From Minisyncoccota bacterium (lineage in GTDB: Bacteria > Patescibacteriota > Minisyncoccia > Phycocordibacterales > UBA1006), in NCBI GenBank assembly GCA_022763365.1, contig JALEGN010000017.1, positions 96 through 64,095 of the forward strand: 64,000 bases of DNA, given 5' to 3'. The notes beneath the pieces were generated by a model. That model was not told the DNA's origin. It made no database searches and saw only the letters and a program-made list of their open reading frames with translations. Positions 4,791-50,983 of this stretch are shown here, one piece after another. Positions within the stretch are counted from its first letter, which is position 1; each line of letters starts with the position of its first letter. A program made the position numbers and the translations under genes.

Positions 4791-5163
4791 TATGATTCTC
4801 TCAGATATTCAAAAAGAATTCATATTGAATGCTGAATCAAAAGCCCTAGGAACATACGGAGACAATATTCATGTTATCCCTGTATCAACAATTTTTATTA
4901 ATAATGAGCAAATTATTCTTTGTAATTATTTCATGAAAAATACTATTGATAATATTCTCCAGAATCCAAATGTAAGTTTGAGTTGTTGGTCGCAAACACA
5001 AGGGATTCAGATTAAAGGCATTGTTACATACCAAGAAACGGGAGATGTATTTTCTTGGATTCAGAATATTATTTCTCAAAAATATCCTCATAGAATTCTC
5101 AAGGGTGTTCTCGTTATTAATCCCAGTGACGTATATGATACCTCACTTCCACAATTATTATGA
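4780..5163 (+). CDS. PNPOx-like / FMN-binding split-barrel family protein.
   Basis: Overall pattern similar to the pyridoxamine 5'-phosphate oxidase-like family. Translationally coupled to its neighbours. Confidence 0.3.
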   Translation: MNASMILSDIQKEFILNAESKALGTYGDNIHVIPVSTIFINNEQIILCNYFMKNTIDNILQNPNVSLSCWSQTQGIQIKGIVTYQETGDVFSWIQNIISQKYPHRILKGVLVINPSDVYDTSLPQLL

Positions 5164-5624
5164 AAAAATATATTATCATCTCTCTACTTTTTGGGTTTGC
5201 TCTTGGGTATGTCACATTTATCACTCTTGATGCTTATTCAAATAAAAATCATACGGTAGCAATACAACATAGTCCGCATGCTATGCACCTACACGAACCT
5301 GTACCTGTGTTATCTGAAAATATCCCATCAATTTCAGCAAATATTTTTCCAGACCATAAGTCTGGATACAATATCAATCTCGTTACTGAGCATTTTGAAT
5401 TTACTCCAGAATTAGCAAATATGGAAAACGTTCAAAATCAAGGTCATGCACATATTTATGTGAATAATGAAAAGGTGGCACGAGTTTATGGCTCATGGTA
5501 TCACCTTGATAATCATTATTTAGTTGATGGTTCAAATACAATCCGTATCAGTCTTAATGCTAATGATCATTCAGTTTGGTCAATTAATAATAATCCTATC
5601 GAAGTGAGCTATTTGCTCGATTAA
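5160..5624 (+). CDS. Hypothetical exported protein.
   Basis: N-terminal hydrophobic segment; the start overlaps the stop of the upstream gene (ATGA). Confidence 0.4.
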   Translation: MKKYIIISLLFGFALGYVTFITLDAYSNKNHTVAIQHSPHAMHLHEPVPVLSENIPSISANIFPDHKSGYNINLVTEHFEFTPELANMENVQNQGHAHIYVNNEKVARVYGSWYHLDNHYLVDGSNTIRISLNANDHSVWSINNNPIEVSYLLD

Positions 5625-5628
5625 ATCT

Positions 5629-6621
5629 ATGAAAAAATTATTTATTTTACTTATTGGAGTCTTTTCAATACCGCATACTACACTAGCTCATGTACGTTAC
5701 ATAGCTACTGAAGCAGAGCAAGCCGCATTATCTCAAATCGATTTTGCCTTGTTGTTATCACCACTGAAAGAACCTAAATATATTGTTATGATTATTGCGA
5801 CTTTAATATTGGTTGCTATTGTGTATTGGTTTTGTGACCATAATAAATATATTCATAGGTGGACTGAACACATGGCACATGTAGGGGAATCATATAAACA
5901 ATTTATTCCGTGGATTACACGATTATCATTAGGAATTATTTTAATTGGCGGAGCAACAAATGAGTTCCTCATTTCTCCGGTCCTTGAAACACCTTTCGTT
6001 TGGATGAATATTTTACAATTAATTATTGGGTTCTTCCTGATGGCAGGTTTTATGACTGGAATTTCAGCAATAGTTGCTTTAATTTTATTTATATATGCGC
6101 TGACTCAAGATATGTATTTGATTGGTTCATTCGATATTTTAGGATTAATTCTCTCACTTTTTGCTCTTGATAGTAGGCGTCCTGGGGTAGATGATATCGT
6201 TGGTATCCCTGATTATTTACACATTAAAAAACTACGGAAATACCTTCCTACGATATTACGTATGGGGATTGGTATCGGAATGGCATATCTAGCAATTGTT
6301 GAGAAAATACTTACTCCAGAGCTTGCAGCTATGGTTGCTGAAACAACAGGTCTCGTTGATGTTATTCCTGTCTCCGCAATGATGTGGGCTTTCTCAGCAG
6401 GAGTTATTGAGTTTGTTGTCGGTATTATGTTGTTTATTGGTTTTAGGACACGGTTAGCAGCTGTCGCAGCCCTCATTATTTTATCAATGTCATTCTTCTA
6501 TTTTGGTGAAGATGTAACCTCACACGTGACACTCTTTGGAACTTTATCTGCTGTATTTATTCTTGGTGTTGGTAAATTGGGTGTTGATAGTCCTCATCCA
6601 AAAATTCAAGATTCTCTATAA
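5629..6621 (+). CDS. Integral membrane protein of unknown function.
   Basis: Signal peptide plus multiple hydrophobic helices. Confidence 0.4.
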   Translation: MKKLFILLIGVFSIPHTTLAHVRYIATEAEQAALSQIDFALLLSPLKEPKYIVMIIATLILVAIVYWFCDHNKYIHRWTEHMAHVGESYKQFIPWITRLSLGIILIGGATNEFLISPVLETPFVWMNILQLIIGFFLMAGFMTGISAIVALILFIYALTQDMYLIGSFDILGLILSLFALDSRRPGVDDIVGIPDYLHIKKLRKYLPTILRMGIGIGMAYLAIVEKILTPELAAMVAETTGLVDVIPVSAMMWAFSAGVIEFVVGIMLFIGFRTRLAAVAALIILSMSFFYFGEDVTSHVTLFGTLSAVFILGVGKLGVDSPHPKIQDSL

Positions 6622-12052: not shown

Positions 12053-12619
12053 ATGAATCATAGTGTAAAAAAAATATATTCCTTTTTAAAAAATAAATCA
12101 CGTATGCCAAGTTATACCGAGATTGCATCTCTCTATGGATTTAAATCGAAAAATGCGGCATATAATCTGGTTAAAAAATTTATCCATAAAGGAGAACTCT
12201 CTAAAGATTCAGCTGGTAAAATCATTCCACATAACGATTATCAAAAAATTGCCCTCCTTGGTTCTATTTCAGCTGGATTTCCAGGAGCAGGTGAAGAGGT
12301 GATGCATGAGGCAATGTCATTGGATGACTGGGTCATTACTGACCCTGATGCGAGTTACCTTCTTCAGGTGGAAGGGGATTCCATGATTGATGCTGGTATT
12401 CATAAGGGAGATTATGTTGTTGCTGAAATGACAACTAATTTTAAACCAGGAATGATTGTTGTTGCTGAGATTGACGGAGAGTGGACACTAAAATATTTGA
12501 GAGTAAAAAATAACAGGCAATATCTTGAGGCAGCGAATGACAGCTATCCTGATATGCATCCTAAAAAAGAACTTGTTCTCCATGCTAGGGTAACGGGTGT
12601 CGTCCGCAAGTATGACTAA
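12053..12619 (+). CDS. lexA: LexA-like repressor with an S24 peptidase domain and an N-terminal wHTH.
   Basis: Ala-Gly cleavage site (ISAGFP), GDSM Ser nucleophile and a Lys in EWTLKYL. Confidence 0.75.
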   Translation: MNHSVKKIYSFLKNKSRMPSYTEIASLYGFKSKNAAYNLVKKFIHKGELSKDSAGKIIPHNDYQKIALLGSISAGFPGAGEEVMHEAMSLDDWVITDPDASYLLQVEGDSMIDAGIHKGDYVVAEMTTNFKPGMIVVAEIDGEWTLKYLRVKNNRQYLEAANDSYPDMHPKKELVLHARVTGVVRKYD

Positions 12620-13877
12620 TATTTATATTCATATTGATGCGGATGCTTTTTTTGCATCGGTTGAACAATGTTTACATAGAGAGTTGCGTGGTAAACCTAT
12701 TGTGACCGGTCGTGATGGTTCAGTTGCGGTTGCTATGAGTTATGAGGCAAAGGCACTTGGTGTAGAGCGAGCGATGCCAATTCACCTAATTAGAGAAGAA
12801 TTTCCTATGGTTCAGATGGTAGCTTCTGATTATTTCATGTATCGAATTTTTTCAGCACGAATGCAGCGAATTATTAAACAATATATACCGGAAATTACTC
12901 AGAGTAGTATTGATGAATGTCACGGAGATATTTCAGATGATGTTCAAGATTTTCAGGAAGCAAAGGAACTTGCTCTTAATATTAAACAAGAGCTTGAGTT
13001 AAAATTAGGATGTACCTTTTCAATCGGTATATCCTCATCACCTTTGTTAGCAAAAATGGCTTCAGGCATACATAAACCATCAGGATTGACTATTATTGAT
13101 ACTCAAAATAATAGAGATTATGTAGGCTATCCAATTAAAAAAGTAAATGGACTAGGAACACAATTGTGTAAACGATTATCAGGTTTTGGTATTGTTTATA
13201 TTCGAGATTTTATTCGTGAATATCCTCGCATCAGAAAGAATTTTTCAGTGGTGACTGACGATATTTTTTATCAACTACAGGGATATCCACCATTACGGAA
13301 TAGTAAAAAGGAAGATCAAAAAAGTATGAATCGTGCTCGATCATTTAAGGTCTCGTTTAGCCGAGATGAGGTATATGGACAGTTAGTATTAAATCTTGAA
13401 TCATTATTAAAAAAAATGAGGCGCCAGAACATGCTTGCTAAAACAGTACACGTTTCCTTGGGTGATATTGAGCGTAAACGTGTATCTTCTAAAATACGTT
13501 TAGATACAGCAAGTCGTGACCCTGATAACATCGGTTTTATTGCACAAACATTATTTAATAAAATATATATTAATAATAAAGGATATCGTTATGTTTCAGT
13601 AACACTCTCTGGTCTTATTAAAAAGGATTATCTGCAAATTGATTTGTTTGGAGAGAGTATCAATAGTGAAAAAAGAGAAGGTATGTATTCAGCTATTGAT
13701 ATCCTTGATGCAAAATTTGGAAAACCAGTTATTCGTTTGGCTAGTACTTTAACAACCCCCCAATCTCTGAGTTCACATATTAACAAAGAAGAGAATATTA
13801 TTACCTATCAAAACCCGCTCCTAAAAGGAGAAACATTTTATAGGCGTGTTCGCTATCCTTACCTTGGGATGATTTAA
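12597..13877 (+). CDS. Y-family translesion DNA polymerase (DinB/UmuC-like).
   Basis: IHIDADAFFASVE N-terminal motif. It overlaps the lexA-like gene by 23 nt. Confidence 0.8.
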   Translation: MSSASMTNIYIHIDADAFFASVEQCLHRELRGKPIVTGRDGSVAVAMSYEAKALGVERAMPIHLIREEFPMVQMVASDYFMYRIFSARMQRIIKQYIPEITQSSIDECHGDISDDVQDFQEAKELALNIKQELELKLGCTFSIGISSSPLLAKMASGIHKPSGLTIIDTQNNRDYVGYPIKKVNGLGTQLCKRLSGFGIVYIRDFIREYPRIRKNFSVVTDDIFYQLQGYPPLRNSKKEDQKSMNRARSFKVSFSRDEVYGQLVLNLESLLKKMRRQNMLAKTVHVSLGDIERKRVSSKIRLDTASRDPDNIGFIAQTLFNKIYINNKGYRYVSVTLSGLIKKDYLQIDLFGESINSEKREGMYSAIDILDAKFGKPVIRLASTLTTPQSLSSHINKEENIITYQNPLLKGETFYRRVRYPYLGMI

Positions 13878-15690: not shown

Positions 15691-16128
15691 TTATTCTGCA
15701 TGATAATCAGCTAGGAGTTCAGAGGAACTCCGTACCTTACCACCATGTCCAACATTAAATTCCATTTTAATATTATGTTCATTACAGAAAATGAACTCAG
15801 GTATATCATCAGCAAAACGATCACCACCATTGGCAAAAATATGAGGCATAATCTTTTCAAGTGCTTTGCAGACACTTTTGTCTGAGTCGTTCATACTATG
15901 TTTCGTTATAATAACTTCATCTACGCACTCGAAAGCTTCAAGAATTTCTTTTCGATCTTGCTCGTTCATAAAATTTTTACCTTTTTTAGTTTGTAACCAG
16001 TTATCATTATTTATAATAACAACAAGGCGATCACCAAGTTTTTTTGCTTCTTGTAAATACCGTACGTGGCCAATATGTATTGGGTCAAAGCCGCCTGAGA
16101 CAGCAACAGTAATTGGTTTTTCATTCAT
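15691..16128 (-). CDS. Cytidylyltransferase-like nucleotidyltransferase (TagD / RfaE domain II-like).
   Basis: GGFDPIHIGHVRYL (HxGH motif). Confidence 0.6.
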   Translation of the reverse strand: MNEKPITVAVSGGFDPIHIGHVRYLQEAKKLGDRLVVIINNDNWLQTKKGKNFMNEQDRKEILEAFECVDEVIITKHSMNDSDKSVCKALEKIMPHIFANGGDRFADDIPEFIFCNEHNIKMEFNVGHGGKVRSSSELLADYHAE

Positions 16129-16231
16129 AGAAAATTATGTAATTGCTTAGAGTAAATAAACCTGAATTCATATCTTGGAAACCTTTTCTTATCAACATGC
16201 ATAGTATAACAGGTATTGTTATACTGTAGCT

Positions 16232-17014
16232 ATGAAGAATTACGACACCTTATTTTTTGATTTAGATGGTACTTTGGCTGAATCTAAACGAGCTATTAAT
16301 GCTGAAATGGCTGAAACGCTTTCTCACGCTAGTCAATCCTTACGTATTGTGATTATTACTGGTGGTATACTTAAGCAGATTCGTACGCAGGTAATTGATA
16401 ACCTACTGAAAGATGCCCAATTAGAAAATGTTTATATTATGCCAACCAGTGGATCAAGTATGTATAGGTATAATAAGGTTAATCAAGTATGGGATATGGT
16501 GTATGAACATGTACTCACTCAAAAACAAAAAGATTTAATTATCTCGAGTCTTAGACATACTTTAGACAATCAAGTATCGTTTACCATTTCTCCAGATGAA
16601 CTTATTGGTGAACAAATCGAGGATCGCGAGACACAAATAACACTCTCTGCTTTAGGGCAACAACAACCAATTGAGGTAAAGCAAAATTGGGACCCTGATC
16701 AAAGGAAGCGTAGGGAACTTGTAGGTTTCCTTAATCATCTTAAAGATGATTTTGATATAAAAATAGGAGGAACAACTTCAGTAGATATTACGCTTAAAGG
16801 TATTGATAAGGCTTTTGGGATTAATGAGTTCTATAAACATACAGGCTTTGATATCAACAAAGGTCTCTTTATTGGAGACCAAATAATTCCTGGAGGGAAC
16901 GACTATGCAGCAACGAAGACAGTCATCGAGACTTATAATACCTCTGGTCCTGAAGAAACCATGACTCTTATCAATAGGATTCTTGAAGATGGTATAAAAG
17001 ACGTGGTATCATAA
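16232..17014 (+). CDS. HAD-superfamily phosphatase/phosphomutase, eukaryotic-type phosphomannomutase-like.
   Basis: FFDLDGTLAES motif I; the length and layout are PMM-like. Confidence 0.45.
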   Translation: MKNYDTLFFDLDGTLAESKRAINAEMAETLSHASQSLRIVIITGGILKQIRTQVIDNLLKDAQLENVYIMPTSGSSMYRYNKVNQVWDMVYEHVLTQKQKDLIISSLRHTLDNQVSFTISPDELIGEQIEDRETQITLSALGQQQPIEVKQNWDPDQRKRRELVGFLNHLKDDFDIKIGGTTSVDITLKGIDKAFGINEFYKHTGFDINKGLFIGDQIIPGGNDYAATKTVIETYNTSGPEETMTLINRILEDGIKDVVS

Positions 17015-17019
17015 AGACT

Positions 17020-17361
17020 ATGAAGCCATCAGAAGTTACTAATAAACCATGGGGACATTTTAGGCAGTTTACCTTGAACCAGCAAACCACTATTAAAACC
17101 TTGAATGTCAATGCAGGAGAAATTCTCTCCCTTCAAACTCATACAACCCGAGAAGAATATTGGTATGTCCTTGAAGGTCACCCTCAAATTACCCTCGGTG
17201 ACGAAATTTTTGATGCGCAGCCAGGTCAAGAAATTTTTGTTACCCAAGGACAACAACACAGGATTGCAGCACCTACTGACGCTGTGGTTATATTAGAAAT
17301 TGCATATGGACATTTTGATGAAGACGATATCGTGCGCTTAGAAGATAAATATAATCGCTAA
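17020..17361 (+). CDS. Cupin-domain protein resembling the C-terminal cupin of type II mannose-6-phosphate isomerase.
   Basis: Cupin His/Glu pattern (LQTHTTREEYWYVLEG … HRIAAPTD … EIAYGHFDEDDIVRLEDKY). Confidence 0.5.
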   Translation: MKPSEVTNKPWGHFRQFTLNQQTTIKTLNVNAGEILSLQTHTTREEYWYVLEGHPQITLGDEIFDAQPGQEIFVTQGQQHRIAAPTDAVVILEIAYGHFDEDDIVRLEDKYNR

Positions 17362-17390
17362 ACTCTTACTAGATAATCACATCATTATTA

Positions 17391-19349
17391 ATGTTTACTA
17401 ACATCTTTTCACAATTTATATCGTGGATACAAAAACTCTTTAGGGTACAACCAGAAGGGTTGTATTTAAACCGCGATATTATTGGAACGGCACGTTTTGA
17501 AAACCAAGTCTATTTTTTCATGCGTCAAGGAAAAGATGTTTTTTTAATGAGTGATACACACCATCGTCATTATCACAGAAAAATTAAGTTCTCCAAAGAC
17601 GTATCTCGTTATACTAATTCGATGAGAGATCTGGATGCTTGTATATTACCAAATGGAGAATATGGATTGGTATGTACTATTACTTTTGGTTCTGGATATA
17701 GAACGCTCTACTTAACATCTGTTGATGGGGTGCATTTTGCTGCATGGTCAATGGTGAGGAGTCCTAATGGTTCACCAACAAAAATCATTGTGCATACTGA
17801 TGGTAATATTGCATTACTAACCTCTATTGATGGAGAAATTTGTTATCGAAAATTAGACCTCGAACACCGGGTTATTGAATATCATGATACCCATCTTAAA
17901 CCTCGTCATGATTCCTTTGACCATAGTCCACTTGCGGTTGTGGCTACTTTTACTATTAATGATGGTGTATTTGTGCTCTACGATACCTCATATCAATTAG
18001 ATGGTTGTGCAACGCATCGTTTTGGAGCAGCACTACTATCTCATGATAATCTTTCGCATACTCATTGGCGTGCTTTTTTCGACGAAGTGCCATTTTGGGA
18101 TTATTTTGCTGACGTAAAAAACCCGCTCCAGCGGCATAATATGTTTACTTTAGGTGGCTACCTTAACAAGGATATGATTAAGGTCTACTTCTACGATACT
18201 CAATCAAAAGATATTTATACTCTTGCTTTACATGAACCCTATTCACGACGTGATCCACATCCTGAAAAAGCTCTTCTTAAAAAATATGTAAACAATCCAA
18301 TTCTTAGACCTAACCCACATCACAGTTGGGAAAACCATACAACCTTTAACCCAACTGCTATTGTAATAGATAATATAACGCATCTTTTGTATCGCGCTGA
18401 AGGATCAGCTGGACTCTCAGTTATTGGATACGGAAAAAGTTATAATGGCGTTACTTTTGATAGATTAGCTGACCCTATTTACGTTCCACGTATGGATTTT
18501 GAAGGAGTGAACGTCGATCCGCGTATTACCAAACTCTTCTCGCGAGGAAGTTATAAGTCTGGATACAATCATTATGAATATCACTCACAACACTCATATG
18601 ATTGGCATGGCGTTGAGGATCCACGTATTACTGAAATAGAAGGGAGACTTTATATTATTTATGCGGCCTATAATGGCTATCAGCAAGCCAGACCAGCAAT
18701 TACTTCAATTACTAAAGAAGATTTTCTTAGTCAAAAATGGAACTGGTCGGTACCACAGCCTATGACTGATGTACCACAATATCATGGACAGGGAAATAAA
18801 AACGTTGTCTTACATCCTGAAAAAGTAAACGGAAAATATATGCTGTATCACCGGATGTGGCCACATATCCGAATTGACTATGTTGATGATTTAGAATTTG
18901 GGCCTAAGAAAAAATATCTTAAAGAACTTGACCGTATCGAAGCCCGCGGAGACTCATGGGATAGTCATAAAATTGCTGTTGCTGCCGCTCCAATAGCTAT
19001 TGATGAAGGATGGTTGTTAATTTACCAAGGAGCAGGATCAAATGATCGTCGGTATAAGGTAGGTGCAATGATTTTAGATAAAGATAATCCGTCTAAAGTG
19101 CTATACCGAAGTAATTATCCAATCATGATACCAAGTCAGTGGTATGAAAATGAACATAAGTTTGGGGTCGCCTATCCTTGCGGAGCAGTTGTACGTGACG
19201 GAATACTCAATGTTTATTATGGTGGATCAGATAAATATGTTTGCTTGGCTCAGGCGCCACTAGAGGAGTTTATAGAAAAACTCAAACAAGATCCTTACAT
19301 CAAACCAGAACTTATTAAGACTAAAAATATTAATGACCTATGTATATAA
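17391..19349 (+). CDS. GH130-like beta-propeller protein (mannoside phosphorylase family). The C-terminal domain is canonical and the N-terminal half is divergent.
   Basis: NNPILRPN, FNPTAIV, EDPRIT, GWLLIYQGAG and YYGGSD motifs. Confidence 0.6.
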   Translation: MFTNIFSQFISWIQKLFRVQPEGLYLNRDIIGTARFENQVYFFMRQGKDVFLMSDTHHRHYHRKIKFSKDVSRYTNSMRDLDACILPNGEYGLVCTITFGSGYRTLYLTSVDGVHFAAWSMVRSPNGSPTKIIVHTDGNIALLTSIDGEICYRKLDLEHRVIEYHDTHLKPRHDSFDHSPLAVVATFTINDGVFVLYDTSYQLDGCATHRFGAALLSHDNLSHTHWRAFFDEVPFWDYFADVKNPLQRHNMFTLGGYLNKDMIKVYFYDTQSKDIYTLALHEPYSRRDPHPEKALLKKYVNNPILRPNPHHSWENHTTFNPTAIVIDNITHLLYRAEGSAGLSVIGYGKSYNGVTFDRLADPIYVPRMDFEGVNVDPRITKLFSRGSYKSGYNHYEYHSQHSYDWHGVEDPRITEIEGRLYIIYAAYNGYQQARPAITSITKEDFLSQKWNWSVPQPMTDVPQYHGQGNKNVVLHPEKVNGKYMLYHRMWPHIRIDYVDDLEFGPKKKYLKELDRIEARGDSWDSHKIAVAAAPIAIDEGWLLIYQGAGSNDRRYKVGAMILDKDNPSKVLYRSNYPIMIPSQWYENEHKFGVAYPCGAVVRDGILNVYYGGSDKYVCLAQAPLEEFIEKLKQDPYIKPELIKTKNINDLCI

Positions 19350-21286
19350 CAAAACGATCAGATCATAATCCCTATATTAGACCAAACGAAGAAAAGCATT
19401 GGATGTCCTATGCTGCTTTTAACTGGTCACCGTGGCATGATACAGAATCTAATACGATTCATGCGTTGTTTCGTGCAATGACACAACCCGACCTGTTATC
19501 AAAAGGTCCCTCATTTTCTGTTTCATCTATTGGATATACAAATAGTAGTGACGAAGAGCATTTCATTAACTACCGGCAGTTTATTTATCCTGAGCATGAA
19601 TGGGAACGTTATGGGTGTGAAGATCCCCGAGTAACTAAAATAGGGGATACCTATTACATTTTCTACACAGCTCTCTCTACCTATCCATTTTCAGCTGAAG
19701 GTATTAAGGTGGCTGTTGCAACCACCAAAGATTTCAAAACGATCGACGAAAAGAAACTTGTTACGCCGTTTAATGCCAAGGCGATGACTTTGTTTCCAAA
19801 AAAAATTAATGGAAAATTTACAGCGCTCTTAACAGTTGATCCAGACAATCCACCGTCAAAAATTGCTTTTATTCAATTTGATACCGAAGAACAGATGTGG
19901 GATCAGGGTTATTGGCACGATTGGTACGCTAATATTGATGATCATATTTTTGATCCACGAAAAAAAGAAGATGATCATTGTGAGATTGGAGCTTCACCAG
20001 TTTGGACAGAACGAGGTTGGTTATTGGTCTATTCACATATTCAAAATTATTTTGAGGAAGATAATCGAATTTTTGGAATCGAAGCATTATTACTTGATCA
20101 TAATGATCCTAAAAAAATTATTGGGCGAACAACCGGTCCAATGCTAGTACCTGAGAAAACCTATGAAAAAGAAGGGCAGATCAAAAATATTGCCTTTCCA
20201 TCAGGAGCCCTTATTCATGATGATCGATTAGATATTTACTATGGTGGTGCTGATTCGGTGTGTTGTATGGCGACGGTGAACTTGGAACATCTTTTAGACT
20301 CGATGAACCCTGAAAAACGTAAAGAACATGTTGTTCGTTACGATAATAATCCTATTCTTTTACCAATTCCAGAAAATGAATGGGAGGCAAAATTGGTCTT
20401 TAATCCAACAACAATTGATATTGGAGAGAAAACCTATATTGTCTATCGAGCGATGTCAGAAGATAATACGTCATATATGGGAGCAGCATTAACGACCGAT
20501 GGTTACACTATTGACGAACGATTCCCTGAACCGATTTATGTTCCACGGATGGATTTTGAAATGAAGAAAACACATCCAACAGGGAACTCAGGCTGTGAAG
20601 ATGGGCGAGCCACCATTATTGGTGATACGATTTACATGTTCTATACCGCCTATAATGGTATCGAGGTGCCAAAGGTGGCATACAGTTCAATTTCAATCGA
20701 AGATTTTGAGAATAAAAATTGGGATGCATGGTCAACGCCACAACTTGTCACACCTGACACGGTAGATGATAAAGATGCCTGTTTACTGACAGAAAAAATT
20801 AAAGGGGAGTATGCTGTGTTCCACCGGGTCGCACATCATATTTGTTTTGATACGGTGCCGTCACTTGATTTCTCAGAATCACGTATTGATAAATGTATTC
20901 CGTTGATTGGTCCACGCTCGGGTATGTGGGATGGATTAAAGGTAGGTATTGCCGGTCCACCAATTAAAACTGACGCTGGATGGCTTCTTTTATACCACGG
21001 AGTTTCAACTGATAAATATTATCGAGTTGGAGCCATGCTTATGGAGTTGGATAATCCTGGAAATATCATTGGACGGACATCAGATTTCATCCTTGAACCT
21101 GAAGAACAATGGGAACTCGAAGGTGAGATTAATCGCGTGGTATTTCCATGTGGTGCTTCAGTGCGAGGAGATGATTTATTAATTTACTATGGAGGAGCTG
21201 ACACGGTTGTTGGGGTTGCAACCACAAAACTCTCATGGCTCCTTAAAACATTGACTTGGCAGCGAGATTCAGATGATTGGTCATAA
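19340..21286 (+). CDS. Tandem double-domain GH130-like protein (two mannoside-phosphorylase-like beta-propellers).
   Basis: Two copies of NPxL … FNP … EDPR … GWLL(V/L)Y … YYGGAD. It overlaps the upstream gene by 10 nt. Confidence 0.65.
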   Translation: MYITKRSDHNPYIRPNEEKHWMSYAAFNWSPWHDTESNTIHALFRAMTQPDLLSKGPSFSVSSIGYTNSSDEEHFINYRQFIYPEHEWERYGCEDPRVTKIGDTYYIFYTALSTYPFSAEGIKVAVATTKDFKTIDEKKLVTPFNAKAMTLFPKKINGKFTALLTVDPDNPPSKIAFIQFDTEEQMWDQGYWHDWYANIDDHIFDPRKKEDDHCEIGASPVWTERGWLLVYSHIQNYFEEDNRIFGIEALLLDHNDPKKIIGRTTGPMLVPEKTYEKEGQIKNIAFPSGALIHDDRLDIYYGGADSVCCMATVNLEHLLDSMNPEKRKEHVVRYDNNPILLPIPENEWEAKLVFNPTTIDIGEKTYIVYRAMSEDNTSYMGAALTTDGYTIDERFPEPIYVPRMDFEMKKTHPTGNSGCEDGRATIIGDTIYMFYTAYNGIEVPKVAYSSISIEDFENKNWDAWSTPQLVTPDTVDDKDACLLTEKIKGEYAVFHRVAHHICFDTVPSLDFSESRIDKCIPLIGPRSGMWDGLKVGIAGPPIKTDAGWLLLYHGVSTDKYYRVGAMLMELDNPGNIIGRTSDFILEPEEQWELEGEINRVVFPCGASVRGDDLLIYYGGADTVVGVATTKLSWLLKTLTWQRDSDDWS

Positions 21287-21287
21287 A

Positions 21288-21314
21288 TAAAAAAGAGCTA
21301 TAGGCTCTTTTGTT
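21288..21314. terminator. Bidirectional intrinsic terminator.
   Basis: aaaaaagagctataggctcttttgtttt. Confidence 0.7.
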
Positions 21315-21851
21315 TTACATAAAATCTTCTTTAATTTTTAGGGTATGAATGCATCCCAAGGGAATTTCAACGTGGAAATATTCACCTATTTCTTGCGCAC
21401 CGAATTCTGAAATCAAATGAGAATAACGAGAGTGCTGACAGGCACGTTCATCAAAAGTCAAAACAATACCACTCAATTCTTCTCGCTCTTCTTCATTAAC
21501 ATAGTATCTTCTGATAACACTACCGATAGAAACAAAGTTTGCATCAAGGGTATAGTTTTCTTTTTTAAGAAAGCTTGCTTCACTGACTTTACCAATTTCG
21601 GTAATGTGTTGAAGAATATCAATAAAGATTTCAATTTCTTCAATATCATGTACATCAATGATACTGAGAACCTTATGAATGTATTTGATATTACTTTCGT
21701 ATTCACTCATCTCGCCTTTATATGTTTCTTGATAAGGCTCAATCGCAGCTAAGAATTTTTTACCATTGTTATTACCACTGATACTGCGGCAGGGTATGTC
21801 ATTTTCTATTAATGATACAGCTACCGTATCCGGATCAATAATCTTTTTCAT
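21315..21851 (-). CDS. Hypothetical protein.
   Basis: ORF only. Confidence 0.3.
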   Translation of the reverse strand: MKKIIDPDTVAVSLIENDIPCRSISGNNNGKKFLAAIEPYQETYKGEMSEYESNIKYIHKVLSIIDVHDIEEIEIFIDILQHITEIGKVSEASFLKKENYTLDANFVSIGSVIRRYYVNEEEREELSGIVLTFDERACQHSRYSHLISEFGAQEIGEYFHVEIPLGCIHTLKIKEDFM

Positions 21852-21937: not shown

Positions 21938-22255
21938 ATGGATAAAACTTTTAGTGAACGTGTTATAGATGCAGCTCTTGCTATTCCATCAGGAAAGGTT
22001 GCGACCTACGGCGATATTGCCCGTGTTTGTGGAGGTAGTGGCCAAGCCGCTCGTAGTATCTCTGGTATTTTAGCTCGAGCTGAGAGAAACGGAGTAAAAA
22101 ATATTCCATGGCATAGAATTGTATATAGTGGTGGTAAGGTTTGGTTCCATCACGATTATAATAAGGAAAGGATGAAACTTTATAAACAAGAGGGAATAGA
22201 GGTGAACGAAAAAGGATACATTGAAAACTTTGTTAATGCACGGTATACATTTTAA
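21938..22255 (+). CDS. MGMT-family protein: the DNA-binding domain of methylated-DNA-protein-cysteine methyltransferase, standalone and YbaZ-like.
   Basis: ATYGDIARVCGGSGQAARSISGIL … IPWHRIV. Confidence 0.6.
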   Translation: MDKTFSERVIDAALAIPSGKVATYGDIARVCGGSGQAARSISGILARAERNGVKNIPWHRIVYSGGKVWFHHDYNKERMKLYKQEGIEVNEKGYIENFVNARYTF

Positions 22256-23856: not shown

Positions 23857-24648
23857 ATGAATACATATAACTTAAATAATCAAAAAGGAATTGGTGTTGT
23901 AGCCGCAATCGTTATTATTGCCATTATTGGTGTAGGAGGATATGCAGCATACAATGCGACCGTTAATAATCGAACTTCAGTAGATGTTGATGAATCAGCT
24001 GTTATAACGACAACTGAGGCAGAAGCTGATGCTATGATCGAATCAGTAAACGAACTTGAGGCAGATGTTACAGCTGCTCTATCAAGTGTTCGAGCTAATT
24101 TATCATTACGAACTCAAGCTGGAATTAATGCAGCAGTAGAAACCTTAAATGACTTAGAAGCTCAGATTGAATCAGAATCAGCCCAAGTATCAGCTGAAGT
24201 TAAAGCTGAACTGGATCGATTTCGGCGTCGCGTGACTTCAGCTCGAGCAAAGGCAGAAGCTAATATTAGCGCTCAATCAGATGCTACAGCAGCAGAAGTA
24301 GAGGCTGAAGTTGAAGCTATTGTAAATGATATTGAAGAAGTATTTGCAGATATTGAAGCAGATATCGAAGCAATGGTAGAATCTGATAACGACGTAGAGA
24401 CAGAATCTGAAGCTAATAATGAAGGAGTATTCGATGTGAATGTCGACTCAGGAGTTATTATTCTTGGTGATACTGATGATTCAGGTGACAATATGAACGA
24501 AGATTCTATGAATGACTCATCAAATGATGAAGATACTAGCTCCGCTGAAACCTCAGCTGAAGTTAATTCAGAAAGCTCTATGGAAATGAACGACGATGTT
24601 TCTGTTGATTCAGAAACCTCGGCAAATGCAGAATTAGATCTTTACTAA
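23857..24648 (+). CDS. Membrane-anchored protein with an acidic Ala/Glu/Asp-rich low-complexity region.
   Basis: N-terminal TM segment (IGVVAAIVIIAIIGVGGYAAY) and an acidic tail. A terminator follows at 24657–24682. Confidence 0.4.
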   Translation: MNTYNLNNQKGIGVVAAIVIIAIIGVGGYAAYNATVNNRTSVDVDESAVITTTEAEADAMIESVNELEADVTAALSSVRANLSLRTQAGINAAVETLNDLEAQIESESAQVSAEVKAELDRFRRRVTSARAKAEANISAQSDATAAEVEAEVEAIVNDIEEVFADIEADIEAMVESDNDVETESEANNEGVFDVNVDSGVIILGDTDDSGDNMNEDSMNDSSNDEDTSSAETSAEVNSESSMEMNDDVSVDSETSANAELDLY

Positions 24649-24677: not shown

Positions 24678-26027
24678 TTGTTATACTTAATATATATGAC
24701 AACCAAACAACAAGTAAATATTTTTTGGTTTAGACGCGACCTGCGCCTTGATGATAATCATGGTTTATATAAAGCACTTAAAGATGGGCTTCCAGTGATC
24801 CCAGTCTTTATTTTTGATAAAGATATTTTAGATGAACTGCCTGAGGATGACCACCGCGTTAGCTTTATCTACGATAGACTCCAAGAGATGAGAAATGAAC
24901 TTCAAGAAAAATGGGATAGCTCTATAGATTTTAGGTATGGTACACCTGAAAAAATCTGGAAGGAACTCCTTAGTGACTATGATGTAAAATCAGTATTTAC
25001 CAATCACGATTATGAGCCTTATGCAAAAAAACGTGATAAGGAAATTAAAGAACTTCTTGAAAAAGAAGATATTGAATTTTATACTTTTAAAGACCAGGTG
25101 ATTTTTGAAAAAGATGAAGTAGTAAAAGACGATGGTGGCCCTTATGTTGTTTATACACCGTACAAAAATAAATGGCGTGAGAAATTTAATTCTGAACGTG
25201 ATCTTAAAACCTATGACGTAGGTCGTTATGGTCAGAATTTTTACCAAAATACGCGACTACCACAGATTAGCCTTTCTGATATGGGATTTACTCGATCAGA
25301 TATTAAGGCGCCATCATATACTCTTACCGATAATCTTATGGGTGATTACGCTGACACGCGTGATTTTCCTGCCGAAGAAGGTACCTCAAAACTAAGCACT
25401 TACTTACGTTTTGGGCTAGTCAGTGTTCGAAAAATTATGAAACAAGCTTATGAAGGTCCAGGTTATACTTTTATGAACGAGCTTGTTTGGCGTGAATTTT
25501 TCATGCAAATCCTTTGGCATTTTCCGTATACGAAAGACCAAGCTTTTAGAGAAAAATACGATGCTATAGCCTGGCGAAACAATGAGGAAGAGTTTGAAAA
25601 ATGGAAAGAAGGGAAGACGGGTTATCCAATTGTGGATGCAGGCATGCGCGAACTTAACGAAACAGGATATATGCACAATCGCGTTCGTATGATTGTAGCG
25701 AGTTTCCTTACCAAACACCTTCTTATTGACTGGCGTTGGGGAGAACGCTATTTTGCAGAAAAACTCTTCGATTATGAAATGGCATCAAACGTAGGGAACT
25801 GGCAATGGACTGCAGGTTCTGGTGTTGATGCGCAGCCATATTTTAGAGTTTTCAATCCACATACTCAGTTTGAGAAGTTCGATAAAAATCAAGAATACGT
25901 CCGCAAGTGGGTTCCGGAGTATTTCGGCGTTGGCTATGTTTCTGAGATGGTAGATCATAAAGAGGCACGCGAGCGTGCCATCGAAACCTATAAACATTCA
26001 CTCAATGAATATGAAAAAAACAATTAA
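24678..26027 (+). CDS. phr: Deoxyribodipyrimidine photolyase (class I CPD photolyase / cryptochrome family).
   Basis: FWFRRDLRLDDN N-terminal motif and FAD-binding WQWTAGSGVDAQPYFRVFNP. The true start is probably the internal MTTKQQ near 24696. Confidence 0.8.
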   Translation: MLYLIYMTTKQQVNIFWFRRDLRLDDNHGLYKALKDGLPVIPVFIFDKDILDELPEDDHRVSFIYDRLQEMRNELQEKWDSSIDFRYGTPEKIWKELLSDYDVKSVFTNHDYEPYAKKRDKEIKELLEKEDIEFYTFKDQVIFEKDEVVKDDGGPYVVYTPYKNKWREKFNSERDLKTYDVGRYGQNFYQNTRLPQISLSDMGFTRSDIKAPSYTLTDNLMGDYADTRDFPAEEGTSKLSTYLRFGLVSVRKIMKQAYEGPGYTFMNELVWREFFMQILWHFPYTKDQAFREKYDAIAWRNNEEEFEKWKEGKTGYPIVDAGMRELNETGYMHNRVRMIVASFLTKHLLIDWRWGERYFAEKLFDYEMASNVGNWQWTAGSGVDAQPYFRVFNPHTQFEKFDKNQEYVRKWVPEYFGVGYVSEMVDHKEARERAIETYKHSLNEYEKNN

Positions 26028-26801: not shown

Positions 26802-28274
26802 TTAGAGTGATCTGAAAAACTCCTCGGCTATTTCAGCATAGTCTTTTTTTTCTTGTGTCGAAAATTTAGCTGCACGAGATGTGACAAAATGCATACGCCC
26901 ATTTGATTTTAACTCATTAAGATGGTCAATGATAAAGGTCCAATATAATGCATCCCAAGTTTTCGCCCATGGTCCATTACTATAATCACTCATTTTTTTA
27001 ACATAATTAGAGCCACTGATATAGGGTTTCGTTGTCATCAGTCCTTTTTGTGTACTCTGTGTCATACCGTAGATATTAGGCACCATGACCCAATCATAGG
27101 CATCGATATACATTTCCATAAACCAATTATAAATATGATTGGGTTTTATTCGGCATAAAAACATAAAATTACCCATCACCATAAGGCGTTCAATATGATG
27201 CGCATAGGCGGTATCCAGCGTCTTTGAAATAGTCGTATCGACTGGATCAATACCTGTTGTTCCTAAATACCACGAGTCGCTGAGATGTCTGCGGTGATTC
27301 CATTGGTTTTCGGTTCGCATTGATACTCCATGTTCTTCATAGACCATGCGAATAAATTCTCGCCAACCAATAATCTGCCTAATAATACCTTCAGTATTAT
27401 TTATAGGAATATCATTTTCATTTGCGTAATTAATAACTGATTCAATGACCTCCATAGGTAAGAGTAGTCCTATGTTAAGGTAAGGAGAGAGCATACTGTG
27501 ATAAAGCTGAGATTTATCTTTTACAATAGCATCTTCATAATCACCAAAAAGGTGGAGTCGTTCCTTGCAAAAATCACGTAACACCGCTAAGGCTTGTTCA
27601 CGATTGATGGCATATGAAAATGATTTAGTATACCCATAGTTATCAGGAAATTTTTCTTCCACATATTTAATAGCATCTGTTACATAATCATTTGTTCGTG
27701 TTCCTGGGTCATTGGGAATTTCAGGATAATGGCTTTTTGGAACTTTTTTTCGGTTTTCATCATCAAATGACCAACGTCCTCCTGTTGGCTTACCGTCTTC
27801 ATTTATTAAAATATCAAGACGTTTACGCTGCCAGGTATAAAAGTTTTGCATGAAAAGCTTACCATCTTTTAAATACTCCTGATTATCTTCTTTCGAATTT
27901 ATAAAAAGAGGAGAATCAAGGAAGGTGAGATTCTTTTCATCTACTACTCGTTTTAATCGTCTTTTGAGCAAATAATCGGTCGGGTCTACACATATAACTT
28001 TTTCAGCTTTTAGCTCCTTGAGGATATCAACAATTGTTTTTTCTGGATCATATTCAATGTATGTAACTGAAATTCCTTTTCCTTTAAGCTCATCTTTATA
28101 GGCTTGCATACTTGCTCGGTGGAGAACTAATTTTTGTTTGTGAAATTTCAAATGACTATGTTTATCACCAAAAAAAAGACTATCTTCTATAAGATACATC
28201 TCATCACAATTTTCTTCAAAAATCGGATGATTTTGAAAAAGTTGATGGGGAAAGATAAGTCCGATGGTTTTCAT
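26802..28274 (-). CDS. Cryptochrome/photolyase-family protein of the COG3046 type (related to PhrB/CryB proteins). The Fe-S cysteine quartet is not evident.
   Basis: Length and N-terminal MKTIGLIFPHQLF pattern. The adjacent DUF2256 gene is a typical neighbour of this family. Confidence 0.5.
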   Translation of the reverse strand: MKTIGLIFPHQLFQNHPIFEENCDEMYLIEDSLFFGDKHSHLKFHKQKLVLHRASMQAYKDELKGKGISVTYIEYDPEKTIVDILKELKAEKVICVDPTDYLLKRRLKRVVDEKNLTFLDSPLFINSKEDNQEYLKDGKLFMQNFYTWQRKRLDILINEDGKPTGGRWSFDDENRKKVPKSHYPEIPNDPGTRTNDYVTDAIKYVEEKFPDNYGYTKSFSYAINREQALAVLRDFCKERLHLFGDYEDAIVKDKSQLYHSMLSPYLNIGLLLPMEVIESVINYANENDIPINNTEGIIRQIIGWREFIRMVYEEHGVSMRTENQWNHRRHLSDSWYLGTTGIDPVDTTISKTLDTAYAHHIERLMVMGNFMFLCRIKPNHIYNWFMEMYIDAYDWVMVPNIYGMTQSTQKGLMTTKPYISGSNYVKKMSDYSNGPWAKTWDALYWTFIIDHLNELKSNGRMHFVTSRAAKFSTQEKKDYAEIAEEFFRSL

Positions 28275-34536: not shown

Positions 34537-36057
34537 CTAACCATCTAAATCAGTTAGTGGATGTGGATGTGTGATATTTTCAAGTCGCTTGTAGGCAAGT
34601 TCTGCTGAGATCAGACAAATTGGCATTCCAATTCCAGGGTTTGTTCCGGCTCCTACATAATAGAGATTTTTAACCTTTTTGGATTTATTACCCGGACGTA
34701 ATAGCGTTTGTTTGAGAGTGTGTGCCATTCCTAATGCTGTTCCTTTATAAGCATTATAATCACGTCCAAAATCATCTCCCCAATATGATCGTTCGTAGAC
34801 AATTGACTCTTCAAGGTCTGGAAGGTTAAGGTCTTTTTTCATCATGTTAATGACCTTGTCGCGATACTGTTTCTTCATTTCATCGGTCACTGTCATACCT
34901 GCTGCAATTGGTACCAGCATGAATAAAATGTCTTTTCCTTCTGGGGCGATATTTGTATCAGTATGCGTTGGTTTGCATACATAATATGACGGATCTTTTG
35001 GTAGTGATGGTTCGTCAAAGAGTTCTTTGAAATTATCTTTCCAATTTTGAGCGAATCGCAGATTGTGGTGAGTCAGATGTGGTACCTCACGATCAAGCCC
35101 TAGATACATAATGAATGCAGATGGCCCCATAACCGCTTTGTTCCAATATTTTTGAGGGAAGGTTTGATGTTTAGACTCTTTGATTAACTTTGTTTCAGTA
35201 AAATGCAGGTCAGCATTTGAAATAACATAATCTGCATTGATAACCTTTCCACCTTCTAATCTGACTCCGACAGCTGTTTTATTTTCTACAAGGATCTCCG
35301 ATACACCGGTATCTGTCATTATTTTAGTTCCGTGTTTATCATTCATTTTTTTCAATGATTCGATGATCGTATAGATTCCACCTTTGGGATAATACACACC
35401 ATAATGGAAATCAATGAAGTTCATGATGTTATAGAGGGCAGGCGTTTTCTTTGGTTCTGATCCGAGGAATACGAGAGTATATTCAAGAATCTTTTTAACC
35501 CGGTCGTCCTTGAACCATTTATTCAAATATTTTTCCATCGTTTGTAATGGATTCATCCGACGACCTTCTTTCATGATGTCCCATTTAAAGAAGTCTAGAA
35601 CAGAGTCATAGTTTCTGTACATAAATGATTTCTTTGCCAATTTATATTGTTCACCAGAGATTTTTAGATACTTTTTGATTTTATCTGATACACCTGGTTC
35701 GAATTGCTCAAGCGTCTCTAAATCTTTATCAAGATCTGAATGAATATTAACAACAGGGTAATCAGGATCTCCAGGGAAGAAGACTTTGTACGATGGTCCA
35801 AGCTTTACAAGGTTGAGATGTTCATTAATATCTTCTTTCATTAAATCATAGAAATGCTCAAAGACATCTGGCATCAAATACCACGATGGTCCCATGTCAA
35901 AGGTATAACCTTCAGCCGTGAAGATATTAGCGCGTCCTCCAATGCTTTCGTTTTTTTCAATAACCGTGACATCATATCCACGTTTTGAGAGAAGGGCTGC
36001 AGTACCCAATCCTCCAATACCAGCACCGATAATGATAACTTTTTTATTCTGATTCAT
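34537..36057 (-). CDS. crtI: Phytoene desaturase-family FAD-dependent oxidoreductase.
   Basis: IIIGAGIGGLGTAALLSKRGYDVTVIEKNESIGGRA dinucleotide fold, ~500 aa. Confidence 0.75.
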   Translation of the reverse strand: MNQNKKVIIIGAGIGGLGTAALLSKRGYDVTVIEKNESIGGRANIFTAEGYTFDMGPSWYLMPDVFEHFYDLMKEDINEHLNLVKLGPSYKVFFPGDPDYPVVNIHSDLDKDLETLEQFEPGVSDKIKKYLKISGEQYKLAKKSFMYRNYDSVLDFFKWDIMKEGRRMNPLQTMEKYLNKWFKDDRVKKILEYTLVFLGSEPKKTPALYNIMNFIDFHYGVYYPKGGIYTIIESLKKMNDKHGTKIMTDTGVSEILVENKTAVGVRLEGGKVINADYVISNADLHFTETKLIKESKHQTFPQKYWNKAVMGPSAFIMYLGLDREVPHLTHHNLRFAQNWKDNFKELFDEPSLPKDPSYYVCKPTHTDTNIAPEGKDILFMLVPIAAGMTVTDEMKKQYRDKVINMMKKDLNLPDLEESIVYERSYWGDDFGRDYNAYKGTALGMAHTLKQTLLRPGNKSKKVKNLYYVGAGTNPGIGMPICLISAELAYKRLENITHPHPLTDLDG

Positions 36058-50415: not shown

Positions 50416-50488
50416 TGTCCCCACCAGGAATCGAACCTGGATCTAGAACTTAGGAGGTTCTTGTTCTATCCGATTGAACTATAGGGAC
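50416..50488 (-). tRNA. tRNA-Arg, anticodon CCT.
   Basis: Hand-folded cloverleaf: acceptor GTCCCTA/TGGGGAC, D stem GTTC/GAAC, anticodon loop CTCCTAA and T arm CCAGG-TTCGATT-CCTGG. Confidence 0.8.
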
Positions 50489-50909: not shown

Positions 50910-50983
50910 GCTCAGGTAGCTCAGTTGGTTAGAGCACTTGTTTGAAGCACAAGGGGTCGGCAGTTCGAATCTGCCCCTGAGCA
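50910..50983 (+). tRNA. tRNA-Phe, anticodon GAA.
   Basis: Acceptor GCTCAGG/CCTGAGC, D arm GCTC…GAGC, anticodon loop TTGAAGC and T arm GGCAG-TTCGAAT-CTGCC. Confidence 0.85.

Follow-up and report, generated by a model that had tools for sequence, protein, structure and literature searches.

A 64-kb stretch of the genome of a Minisyncoccota bacterium (GenBank assembly GCA_022763365.1, contig JALEGN010000017.1, positions 96 to 64,095; hereafter, the window) contains an operon that encodes a haloacid dehalogenase (HAD) family enzyme, a small cupin, and two large proteins, here called A and B, that are built from modules of glycoside hydrolase family 130 (GH130). This operon probably specifies a cytoplasmic module that connects beta-1,2-mannosides, by way of mannose-1-phosphate (Man1P) and mannose-6-phosphate (Man6P), to fructose-6-phosphate (Fru6P), with a division of labor among its GH130 modules. 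The N- and C-terminal halves of the two proteins (A_N, A_C, B_N, and B_C) are not equivalent: judged by their sequences, B_C is canonical, A_C is near-canonical, B_N is without a phosphate site, and A_N is degenerate.

In the scheme that we propose, the operon would tie cytoplasmic beta-1,2-mannosides to central metabolism with no expenditure of ATP. B_C, and probably A_C, would cleave the beta-1,2-mannosidic bond with inorganic phosphate (Pi) to yield alpha-mannose-1-phosphate through the mechanism of inverting type used by GH130, in which the E-D motif's Asp would be the proton donor, acting via O3 of the substrate. The HAD mutase would convert Man1P to Man6P, and the cupin would convert Man6P to Fru6P, such that the overall route would be beta-1,2-mannoside + Pi <-> Man1P <-> Man6P <-> Fru6P. 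A_C would serve as a phosphorylase whose phosphate pocket is altered, B_N would bind and probably cleave beta-1,2-mannosides without phosphate in a hydrolase-like manner with Glu215 as the candidate base, and A_N would be a noncatalytic scaffold or binding propeller. Proteins A and B would be cotranslated and would probably form a single multi-propeller assembly. The domain identities, the residue patterns and their conservation, the linkage of the genes, and the existence of fusions are shown by the data, and we infer the substrate, the chemistry of each module, the physical A-B complex, and the net direction of flux.

Module composition of proteins A and B

Proteins A and B were cut into halves, and each half was scanned separately against Pfam, whose gathering cutoffs are 26 bits for PF04041 (GH130), 23.6 bits for PF01050, and 22.4 bits for PF03332. 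PF04041 matched A_C with 164 bits, B_N with 130 bits, and B_C with 165 bits, all well over the cutoff. A_N (aa 1 to 295) had no Pfam or NCBIfam match even at an E value of 10 or less, which places it outside PF04041, and had no similarity to the other three modules by BLAST. The first-pass annotation of this locus, made from the sequence alone, had described two double-domain GH130 proteins; by sequence this holds for B, but A has only one Pfam module, and its second module required evidence at the level of the fold, which was obtained. That annotation also reported that the GH130 motifs occur twice in B, and they do, although slightly altered: the first module has FNW in place of FNP, and the second has EDGR in place of EDPR. 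It further took single-domain proteins to be typical of GH130, in agreement with a published figure of over 99% monomodular proteins (Li et al. 2020, PMC7660257). Pairwise identity is 36.5% between A_C and B_C and 29% between B_N and B_C.

Among the NCBIfam models, the best scores attained by any module were 214 bits against NF052550 (beta-1,2-mannobiose phosphorylase), 173 bits against NF050092, and 90 bits against NF058598 (BT3780 mannosidase), and protein B as a whole scored 372 bits against NF052550. The nearest relatives of B_C in the PDB are 7FIP (4e-51) and 9FJ8 (5e-50). For B_N, the top NCBIfam model is NF050092, and the PDB ranking is led by 9FJ8, followed by 9EQQ. B_N scored 173 and 163 bits against the phosphorylase models but 80 bits against the hydrolase (BT3780 mannosidase) model, a roughly 2-fold difference suggesting that it is a module of phosphorylase lineage whose phosphate site was lost independently.

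Protein B starts with MYITKRSDHNPY, in which no hydrophobic leader is visible by eye, and protein A starts with a short amphipathic helix (aa 3 to 17 in the AlphaFold2 [AF2] model) with no signal peptide seen by eye. The lack of an apparent signal peptide on either protein fits the cytoplasmic location expected for phosphorylases.

Active-site residues of the GH130 modules

Phosphorylases acting on beta-1,2-mannosides are recognized by a proton-donor Asp, the phosphate-binding Arg/His pair R168/H231 (UhgbMP numbering), and the combination of R/E/K/D in the +1 subsite (Li et al. 2020, PMC7660257, Table 2). The proton donor corresponds to D104 in UhgbMP and D142 in BT3780, and a substitution of Tyr for the His is accepted in some predicted phosphorylases (Li et al. 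2020, PMC7660257). We mapped these key positions by alignment to Teth514_1788 and Teth514_1789, and we next inspected them in 115 sequences of the B family and 26 of the A family.

In B_C, the residues of the sugar subsites and the proton donor (N355, R370, E420, D421, K478, and D621), as well as those of the phosphate site (R496, K534, H553, and Y561), are invariant in all 115 sequences. With the full published signature, B_C is by these residues a canonical beta-1,2-mannoside phosphorylase. The first-pass annotation had named as decisive against a phosphorylase locus either the lack of any GH130 match or the loss of the catalytic Asp and the phosphate-binding residues from all four modules; GH130 matches were found, and B_C has every one of these residues.

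The sugar subsites and donor of A_C (N320, R335, E409, D410, K470, and D614) are likewise invariant (26 of 26 sequences). Its phosphate site contains R488, K/R527, Y555, and K556, which do not vary among the 26 orthologues, but the position of the His is occupied by Gln546 in all 26 sequences. In B_N, all 115 sequences have N28, E94, D95, K147, and D305, and 114 of them have R45, preserving the sugar subsites and donor, whereas the phosphate site is replaced: the R168 equivalent is T/S165, the H231 equivalent is S232, and the Tyr-Arg pair has become I/V244-F245. The third basic ligand (the K/R242 equivalent) is His213 by HMMER alignment. B_N therefore does not possess the phosphate-binding Arg/His pair. 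The label of phosphorylase locus is thus appropriate for B_C but applies in full to only one of four modules, given the replacement of His by Gln in A_C, the missing phosphate site in B_N, and the probably noncatalytic character of A_N.

The +1-subsite combination is invariant or nearly so in three modules, comprising R370/E420/K478/D621 in B_C, R45/E94/K147/D305 in B_N, and R335/E409/K470/D614 in A_C. This signature predicts a beta-1,2 linkage and not that of beta-1,4 mannan.

Certain GH130 enzymes are hydrolases that are without the three basic phosphate ligands but retain the rest of the site, including the -1 subsite (Cuskin et al. 2015, PMC4599007). B_N displays this GH130_3-type pattern, with three basic phosphate ligands absent and the -1 subsite kept, which is the basis for likening it to the hydrolases. 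The base in the GH130_3 enzyme BT3780 is the pair E227/E268, and the only invariant acid in the appropriate strand of B_N is Glu215 (115 of 115 sequences). Glu215 lies two residues past His213 within strand 213-216 of the protein B model, and since the two are separated by two residues on one beta-strand, their side chains are predicted to point the same way. By profile coordinates, which were triangulated and carry an uncertainty of about 5 residues, Glu215 falls within about 5 residues of E268 of BT3780. Asp169 of B_N was considered as a second base of the hydrolase type and was rejected, as it aligns with the "PD" motif of the Teth514 phosphorylases.

B_N has about 8 extra residues following the R168 position relative to the Teth514 enzymes. 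Shortly downstream of this extended loop is a helical insertion (aa ~181 to 203; window positions 19880 to 19950) with an invariant Trp192 and Trp195. Neither B_C and A_C nor the Teth514 enzymes have this insertion, which could form a contact between modules or a platform for sugar.

Predicted structures and the origin of A_N

As the first-pass annotation had advised, structures were predicted for A_N and for protein B, and these models recovered a GH130-like propeller for A_N and two propellers for B. The AF2 model of A_N (pLDDT 85.3, pTM 0.81) is all-beta, apart from the short helix that precedes it. A Foldseek search of the PDB with this model returned GH130 structures at the top, led by Teth514_1788 (9GPH; E value of 4e-8, TM-score of 0.62), with GH43 and GT108 ranking below. 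In addition, the profile of 26 A_N orthologues is colinear with the profiles of GH130 modules (hhalign; E value of ~1.5e-4, probability of ~52%), with the strand motifs in register. A transitive link is provided by the N-terminal halves of the distant long A-type proteins P0237, P0241, P0243, and P0249, which match the hidden Markov model (HMM) of A_N at 1e-17 to 1e-30 and also match HMMs of GH130 modules with E values down to 2e-10. These three independent lines of evidence, drawn from modeling and from profiles, show A_N as a degenerate propeller derived from GH130, although not as a member of the family at the level of sequence.

A_N is probably noncatalytic. The weak colinear alignment sets R79-D80, which are not invariant, opposite the catalytic E-D pair, and neither the phosphate ligands nor the final Asp is kept. 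The earlier description of the N-terminal half of A as degenerate is confirmed. A_N is also narrowly distributed, with 14 matches among 1.84 billion representative proteins, all of them N-terminal in proteins of ~610 to 650 aa.

The full-length model of protein B has a pLDDT of 93.5 and a pTM of 0.90, the latter predicting that its two propellers pack rigidly. No solved structure spans both propellers (Foldseek TM-scores of at most 0.42 when normalized to the query and up to 0.90 when normalized to the target); for B_C, the target-normalized TM-score is 0.87 to 0.90.

Distribution and gene context in related genomes

One genome per species was scanned for the pair of genes that includes a B-type protein, yielding at least 594 loci. 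The A+B pair occurs in at least 594 species genomes, almost all of which belong to the Patescibacteria (the Candidate Phyla Radiation [CPR]), with Omnitrophota in addition. Among the matches listed, the labels include Paceibacteria, Nomurabacteria, Adlerbacteria, Moranbacteria, and Saccharibacteria, and the nearest relatives of the window are Patescibacteria metagenome-assembled genomes, with 76 to 89% identity. Protein B itself, looked up as an exact entry in the assembly collection, had no record there, and relatives were used in its place. The double-GH130 protein of the B type has hundreds of full-length relatives at 53 to 58% identity, which are annotated as "hypothetical" or as "GH43/DUF377."

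To characterize gene context, 80 related loci were fetched; the B gene was located in 79 of these, and 45 had adequate flanks. In 75 of the 79 loci, the gene directly upstream of B is a GH130 gene of the A type, and the usual gene order is [cytidylyltransferase] [HAD] cupin A B [HAD]. Within the 45 well-flanked loci, a cupin is present in 39 (87%), a HAD gene in 32 (71%), both in 31, and a cytidylyltransferase in 15. Unbiased clustering of the neighboring open reading frames (ORFs) in the 80 loci revealed no recurrent transporter, kinase, glycosyltransferase, or secreted glycanase. Besides the cupin, HAD, and cytidylyltransferase genes, the only recurrent neighbor is a multi-pass membrane protein of ~200 aa, which is encoded near the operon in 18 of 80 loci (among them L035, L058, L059, L062, L064, and L081), ~1 kb upstream of the cupin, and is not in the window.

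The A-type proteins are either short (~370 to 440 aa, with one module) or long (~600 to 680 aa), and a few of the long ones retain an N-terminal half that scores as GH130. The phosphate pockets of A-type proteins differ by lineage: the window has the type HR...WDS.K, and most CPR have HS/HN...VRGAG...YH, with the His kept and the Arg absent in A-type lineages other than that of the window. Four independent fusions of 971 to 1110 aa have the order [A-like GH130]-[B_N]-[B_C], and these triple-module proteins constitute Rosetta-stone evidence for a joint action of A and B.

The closest relative is GCA_030433255.1, in which the gene for the HAD/phosphomannomutase (PMM)-like protein is in two overlapping ORFs (L003, positions 4891 to 5666) and A is called 76 aa shorter. 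This reflects either a frameshift or an assembly error.

Organization of the operon and neighboring enzymes

The five ORFs anticipated at this locus were recovered at the positions expected, with A and B adjacent and overlapping (Table 1). The overlap is 10 nt (ATGTATATAA), suggesting translational coupling of the two genes. A hairpin with a nine-pair stem and a T-run on both strands begins 5 nt past the stop codon of B. A promoter scan at the locus gave fewer matches than did shuffled sequence and is thus uninformative. The G+C content of the window is ~35%.

Table 1. Features of the GH130 locus, with positions numbered from the first base of the window
Feature	Position	Strand	Size and basis
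Cytidylyltransferase-like nucleotidyltransferase gene	15691-16128	-	145 aa; HIGH motif; divergent from operon; PF01467
Predicted HAD-IIB alpha-phosphohexomutase gene (PMM/alpha-phosphoglucomutase type)	16232-17014	+	260 aa; PF03332, TIGR01484, 4BND match
Cupin gene, single-domain, C-terminal family of type II phosphomannose isomerase (PMI)	17020-17361	+	113 aa; PF01050
Protein A gene	17391-19349	+	652 aa; PF04041 (GH130), 161 bits
A_N (protein A, aa 1-295), degenerate GH130-like five-bladed propeller (predicted)	17391-18275	+	AF2/Foldseek, profile alignment, transitive HMM
A_C (protein A, aa 296-652), GH130, beta-1,2 signature, variant phosphate site (Gln546 replaces His)	18276-19349	+	PF04041
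Protein B gene	19340-21286	+	648 aa; PF04041 (GH130), 290 bits
B_N (protein B, aa 1-325), GH130, sugar subsites -1/+1 and proton donor intact, phosphate ligands gone	19340-20314	+	PF04041
B_C (protein B, aa 326-648), predicted canonical beta-1,2-mannoside phosphorylase module	20315-21286	+	PF04041, invariant signature residues
Bidirectional terminator-like hairpin, end of HAD-cupin-A-B operon	21291-21311	both	Consensus match only

The genes directly upstream of A had been described as a PMM-like HAD phosphomutase and a PMI-like cupin, and both assignments agree with our searches. The HAD protein scores 50 bits against PF03332 and 72 bits against TIGR01484, with Hydrolase_3 also assigned by Pfam. 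Its nearest PDB relative is 4BND, the HAD-type alpha-phosphoglucomutase of L. lactis, which it matches along its full length with 131 bits; eukaryotic PMMs rank next. Across 47 orthologues, there is no variation in the HAD core motifs DxDxT, S/T, K, D, and GGND (D10, D12, T14, S/T43, K189, and D216). By these matches the protein is an alpha-hexose-1-phosphate mutase, and a specificity for mannose is suggested by gene context only. The possibility that it is a sugar-phosphate phosphatase of the MPGP, SPP, or T6PP type was rejected: its best full-length matches are phosphohexomutases (4BND and the PMMs), and the phosphatase models score far under cutoff.

The cupin matches PF01050 with 72.8 bits. 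Its PWG motif, Gln39, His41, Arg44, Glu46, Trp48, and His80 are near-invariant in ~60 orthologues. Of the classical HxH motif, the second His varies among orthologues, and the window has Thr there. Q39, H41, E46, and H80 are residues of the type that bind metal, and type I PMI also has a Gln/His/Glu/His zinc site. We propose that the cupin may interconvert Man6P and Fru6P.

The divergent cytidylyltransferase reported upstream of the operon is present (PF01467, 60.7 bits, over the gathering cutoff), with GGFDPIHIGH (the HxGH motif) in its translation, yet such a gene is linked in only about one-third of loci. No NCBIfam equivalog cutoff was met by this protein (best model, rfaE_dom_II, 76.8 bits versus a cutoff of 181.5 bits); its nearest PDB relatives are ECT, TagD, and the RfaE-II-like 3GLV.

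Other features of the window

When ten further large ORFs of the window were scanned against Pfam, only housekeeping genes were detected, and none besides those above was related to mannose. Immediately beyond the operon, an ORF of 178 aa (positions 21315 to 21851, minus strand) stands between B and an MGMT-like gene (21938 to 22255). This ORF has no Pfam or NCBIfam match and is absent from all 80 related loci, and in the closest relatives the MGMT-like gene directly follows B, such that the ORF looks like a lineage-specific insertion.

On the other side of the locus, an ORF for a LexA-like S24 repressor (12053 to 12619, plus strand) overlaps the start of a DinB/Pol IV-like ORF (12597 to 13877), and from their translations the two look like a compact SOS-type pair. 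The window also contains two photolyase-family genes, one photolyase-like (24678 to 26027, plus strand) and the other encoding a DPRP/FAD_binding_7 protein (26802 to 28274, minus strand), as well as a gene for an amine-oxidase- or phytoene-desaturase-like flavoprotein (34537 to 36057, minus strand). Together, these genes suggest that this CPR bacterium occupies a light-exposed habitat. A 263-aa protein (23857 to 24648, plus strand) is extremely acidic and of low complexity (rich in Ala, Glu, Asp, and Ser), with an N-terminal hydrophobic segment. The only Rfam matches in the window are two divergently oriented tRNA genes (50416 to 50488, minus strand, and 50910 to 50983, plus strand).

Comparison with known GH130 systems

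The best matches of B_C and A_C in both sequence and structure are the GH130_6 enzymes of Thermoanaerobacter X-514, Teth514_1788 and Teth514_1789 (9FJ8 and 7FIP), although identity to them is only ~33 to 36%. The Teth514 enzymes share the D/R/H/R/E/K/D signature with B_C and, as is the case here, are encoded by two adjacent GH130 genes whose products work in series on cytoplasmic beta-1,2-mannosides (Chiku et al. 2014). They differ in being single-module proteins of ~300 aa, encoded in a cluster with an ABC importer, GH5, ManC, and GT4 that is proposed to feed the synthesis of GDP-mannose. In the operon described here, by contrast, the modules are fused in tandem, the phosphate sites are altered or lost in two of the four, and the neighboring genes encode a HAD mutase and a PMI cupin but no transporter.

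Among the best matches of B_N are the GH130_4 enzymes Lin0857 and Uhgb_MS (respectively, a phosphorylase of beta-1,2-mannobiose and a "mannoside synthase"; 5B0P and 9ERG). The ~8-residue extension in B_N is comparable with the longer L2 loop reported for GH130_4 (PMC12814180). These enzymes have a full phosphate site, the positions of which are occupied in B_N by T/S, H, S, and F, and B_N in addition has the invariant Glu215. The beta-1,2-mannosidases of GH130_3, BT3780 and BACOVA_03624 (5A7V and 3QC2), resemble B_N in that they have no set of three basic phosphate ligands but keep the -1 subsite, the donor Asp, and the Glu/Lys determinants of beta-1,2 specificity. The BT3780 type has the Glu227/Glu268 base pair, is often secreted, and occurs in loci for the utilization of yeast mannan; B_N, in contrast, has one candidate Glu, no signal peptide by eye, and a low score against the BT3780 model.

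Tandem GH130-GH130 proteins are represented in CAZy by bimodular entries that are likewise uncharacterized and that in 2018 made up 4 of the 1,592 sequences (Li et al. 2020, PMC7660257). Multi-modular GH130 proteins were placed for the most part in UC4 and the hydrolase meta-node C3, and the two halves of any one GH130-GH130 protein fall into the same cluster (Li et al. 2020, PMC7660257). Unlike those pairs, B_N and B_C have diverged extensively and appear functionally differentiated. A more distant parallel is the set of Leishmania GT108 proteins MTP1-7, which have in common with these modules a five-bladed fold and a proposed mechanism, and which form an array of paralogues specialized for either the synthesis or the phosphorolysis of an intracellular beta-1,2-mannan, mannogen. 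They belong to another CAZy family, are similar at the level of the fold only (Foldseek E values of ~1e-5 to 1e-10), and are separate eukaryotic proteins. In literature searches, neither this operon nor a function for GH130 in CPR was found described, the one related mention being of two GH130 genes in a Microgenomates genome. Nor did these searches turn up a canonical phosphorylase fused to a GH130 module whose sugar site is intact but whose phosphate site is gone.

Possible functions of the operon

The first-pass annotation envisaged the salvage of mannan or mannosides, with Man1P from phosphorolysis passing through Man6P to Fru6P. This route is the accepted fate of GH130 products (Chiku et al. 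2014), and the linkage of HAD and cupin genes to A and B in 31 of the 45 well-flanked loci supports it; as for the linkage, the residue signature is that of beta-1,2 and not of beta-1,4 mannan. The catabolic direction of salvage is an assumption, with no transporter or secreted glycanase linked to the operon.

Several observations weigh against the function that we favor. No module reaches the NCBIfam equivalog cutoffs (450 bits for NF052550 and 550 bits each for NF050092 and NF058598), and the fused family is without any biochemically characterized member. The nearest solved relative of the HAD protein is an alpha-phosphoglucomutase and not a PMM, leaving its sugar specificity unproven, and neither a close solved structure nor a characterized close relative was found for the small cupin family. 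B_N has a single candidate base, Glu215, compared with two glutamates in BT3780, and the equivalence of this residue to Glu268 is only approximate. Finally, beta-1,2-mannans are rare in the environment (Chiku et al. 2014), and with no linked transporter, a catabolic role in at least 594 species is awkward.

A different possibility, doubtful but worth serious consideration, is that the operon builds and mobilizes an internal reserve of beta-1,2-mannan, as a bacterial counterpart of the mannogen of Leishmania. The route would then run from Fru6P to Man6P to Man1P, an A-type module with its weakened phosphate pocket or B_N would extend chains, using as donor either Man1P or an NDP-mannose supplied by the linked nucleotidyltransferase, and B_C would remobilize the polymer by phosphorolysis, such that the modules form a synthase/phosphorylase "rheostat" and not a salvage system. 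The operon is self-contained, with no transporter, kinase, or secreted glycanase recurring across the 80 loci, and it has been kept in at least 594 reduced-genome species from very different habitats, whereas beta-1,2-mannan outside the cell is scarce (Chiku et al. 2014). Moreover, beta-1,2-specific GH130 phosphorylases already show GDP-Man transferase activity, and a short L2 loop with only three phosphate contacts has been proposed to favor transferase over phosphorylase activity (PMC12814180); the A-type modules have a short L2 and are without the His (in the clade of the window) or without the Arg (in most CPR). In Leishmania, tandem paralogues of similar fold are divided into synthases and phosphorylases (PMC10913872). 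The nucleotidyltransferase cuts both ways, being linked in one-third of loci but missing from two-thirds, with an activity on sugar-1-phosphates that is only putative. B_N does not have residues with which an NDP-sugar could be held by its distal phosphate, the ratios of Pi to Man1P in cells favor phosphorolysis, and glycosyltransferase and glycoside phosphorylase activities cannot be told apart from active-site residues alone (Franceus et al.). Such a polymer has never been observed in CPR cells. We know of no reserve polymer in CPR bacteria. The specific form of this idea, in which Patescibacteria and Omnitrophota would make and mobilize intracellular beta-1,2-mannan with an A-type synthase, B_N for phosphate-independent trimming or priming, and B_C as phosphorylase, is slightly less probable again.

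It is improbable that B_C is the only enzyme of the four modules, with B_N, A_N, and perhaps A_C acting as covalent stand-ins for the partners in a GH130 homo-oligomer, in scaffolding, carbohydrate-binding, or regulatory roles. The GH130 enzymes characterized so far form dimers or larger assemblies, in which loop L2 sits at the interface beside the active site, and the predicted rigid two-propeller body of B, the absence of phosphate ligands from B_N, and the clear loss of the active site in the fast-evolving A_N are all compatible with such an arrangement. But B_N has kept its donor D95 and every -1 and +1 ligand at only 50 to 60% overall identity, in addition to the invariant Glu215, and conservation of a catalytic acid to this degree is not expected of a pure scaffold. 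The catalytic set of A_C is also whole save for one His. A cytoplasmic route from beta-1,2-mannosides to Fru6P, with phosphorolysis probably assigned to B_C and A_C and phosphate-independent cleavage to B_N, remains the reading that we prefer.

Significance

The enzymes of this operon belong to a known family and follow standard pathway logic, and what is new is their widespread fused and differentiated form. GH130 phosphorylases have been studied almost exclusively as single-module enzymes of gut and thermophilic bacteria. The family described here is large and unnamed, and its fused modules have diverged into a canonical phosphorylase, a module whose phosphate site is gone, and, in some lineages, a degenerate propeller. 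Protein B is a natural case in which two active sites of one fold, one with phosphate binding and the other lacking it, are covalently joined, and as such it bears on the divide among phosphorylases, hydrolases, and transferases in GH130 and GT108.

Few operons for sugar metabolism are conserved in Patescibacteria, and this is one of them; how these bacteria manage carbon and energy is poorly understood. Were the reserve to be confirmed, the finding would be clearly more interesting, and the operon would provide an ATP-free carbohydrate buffer in ultra-small, fermentative, host-dependent cells. Whether the operon serves to salvage mannosides from a host or to manage an internal store of mannan, the answer would inform how Patescibacteria cells live.

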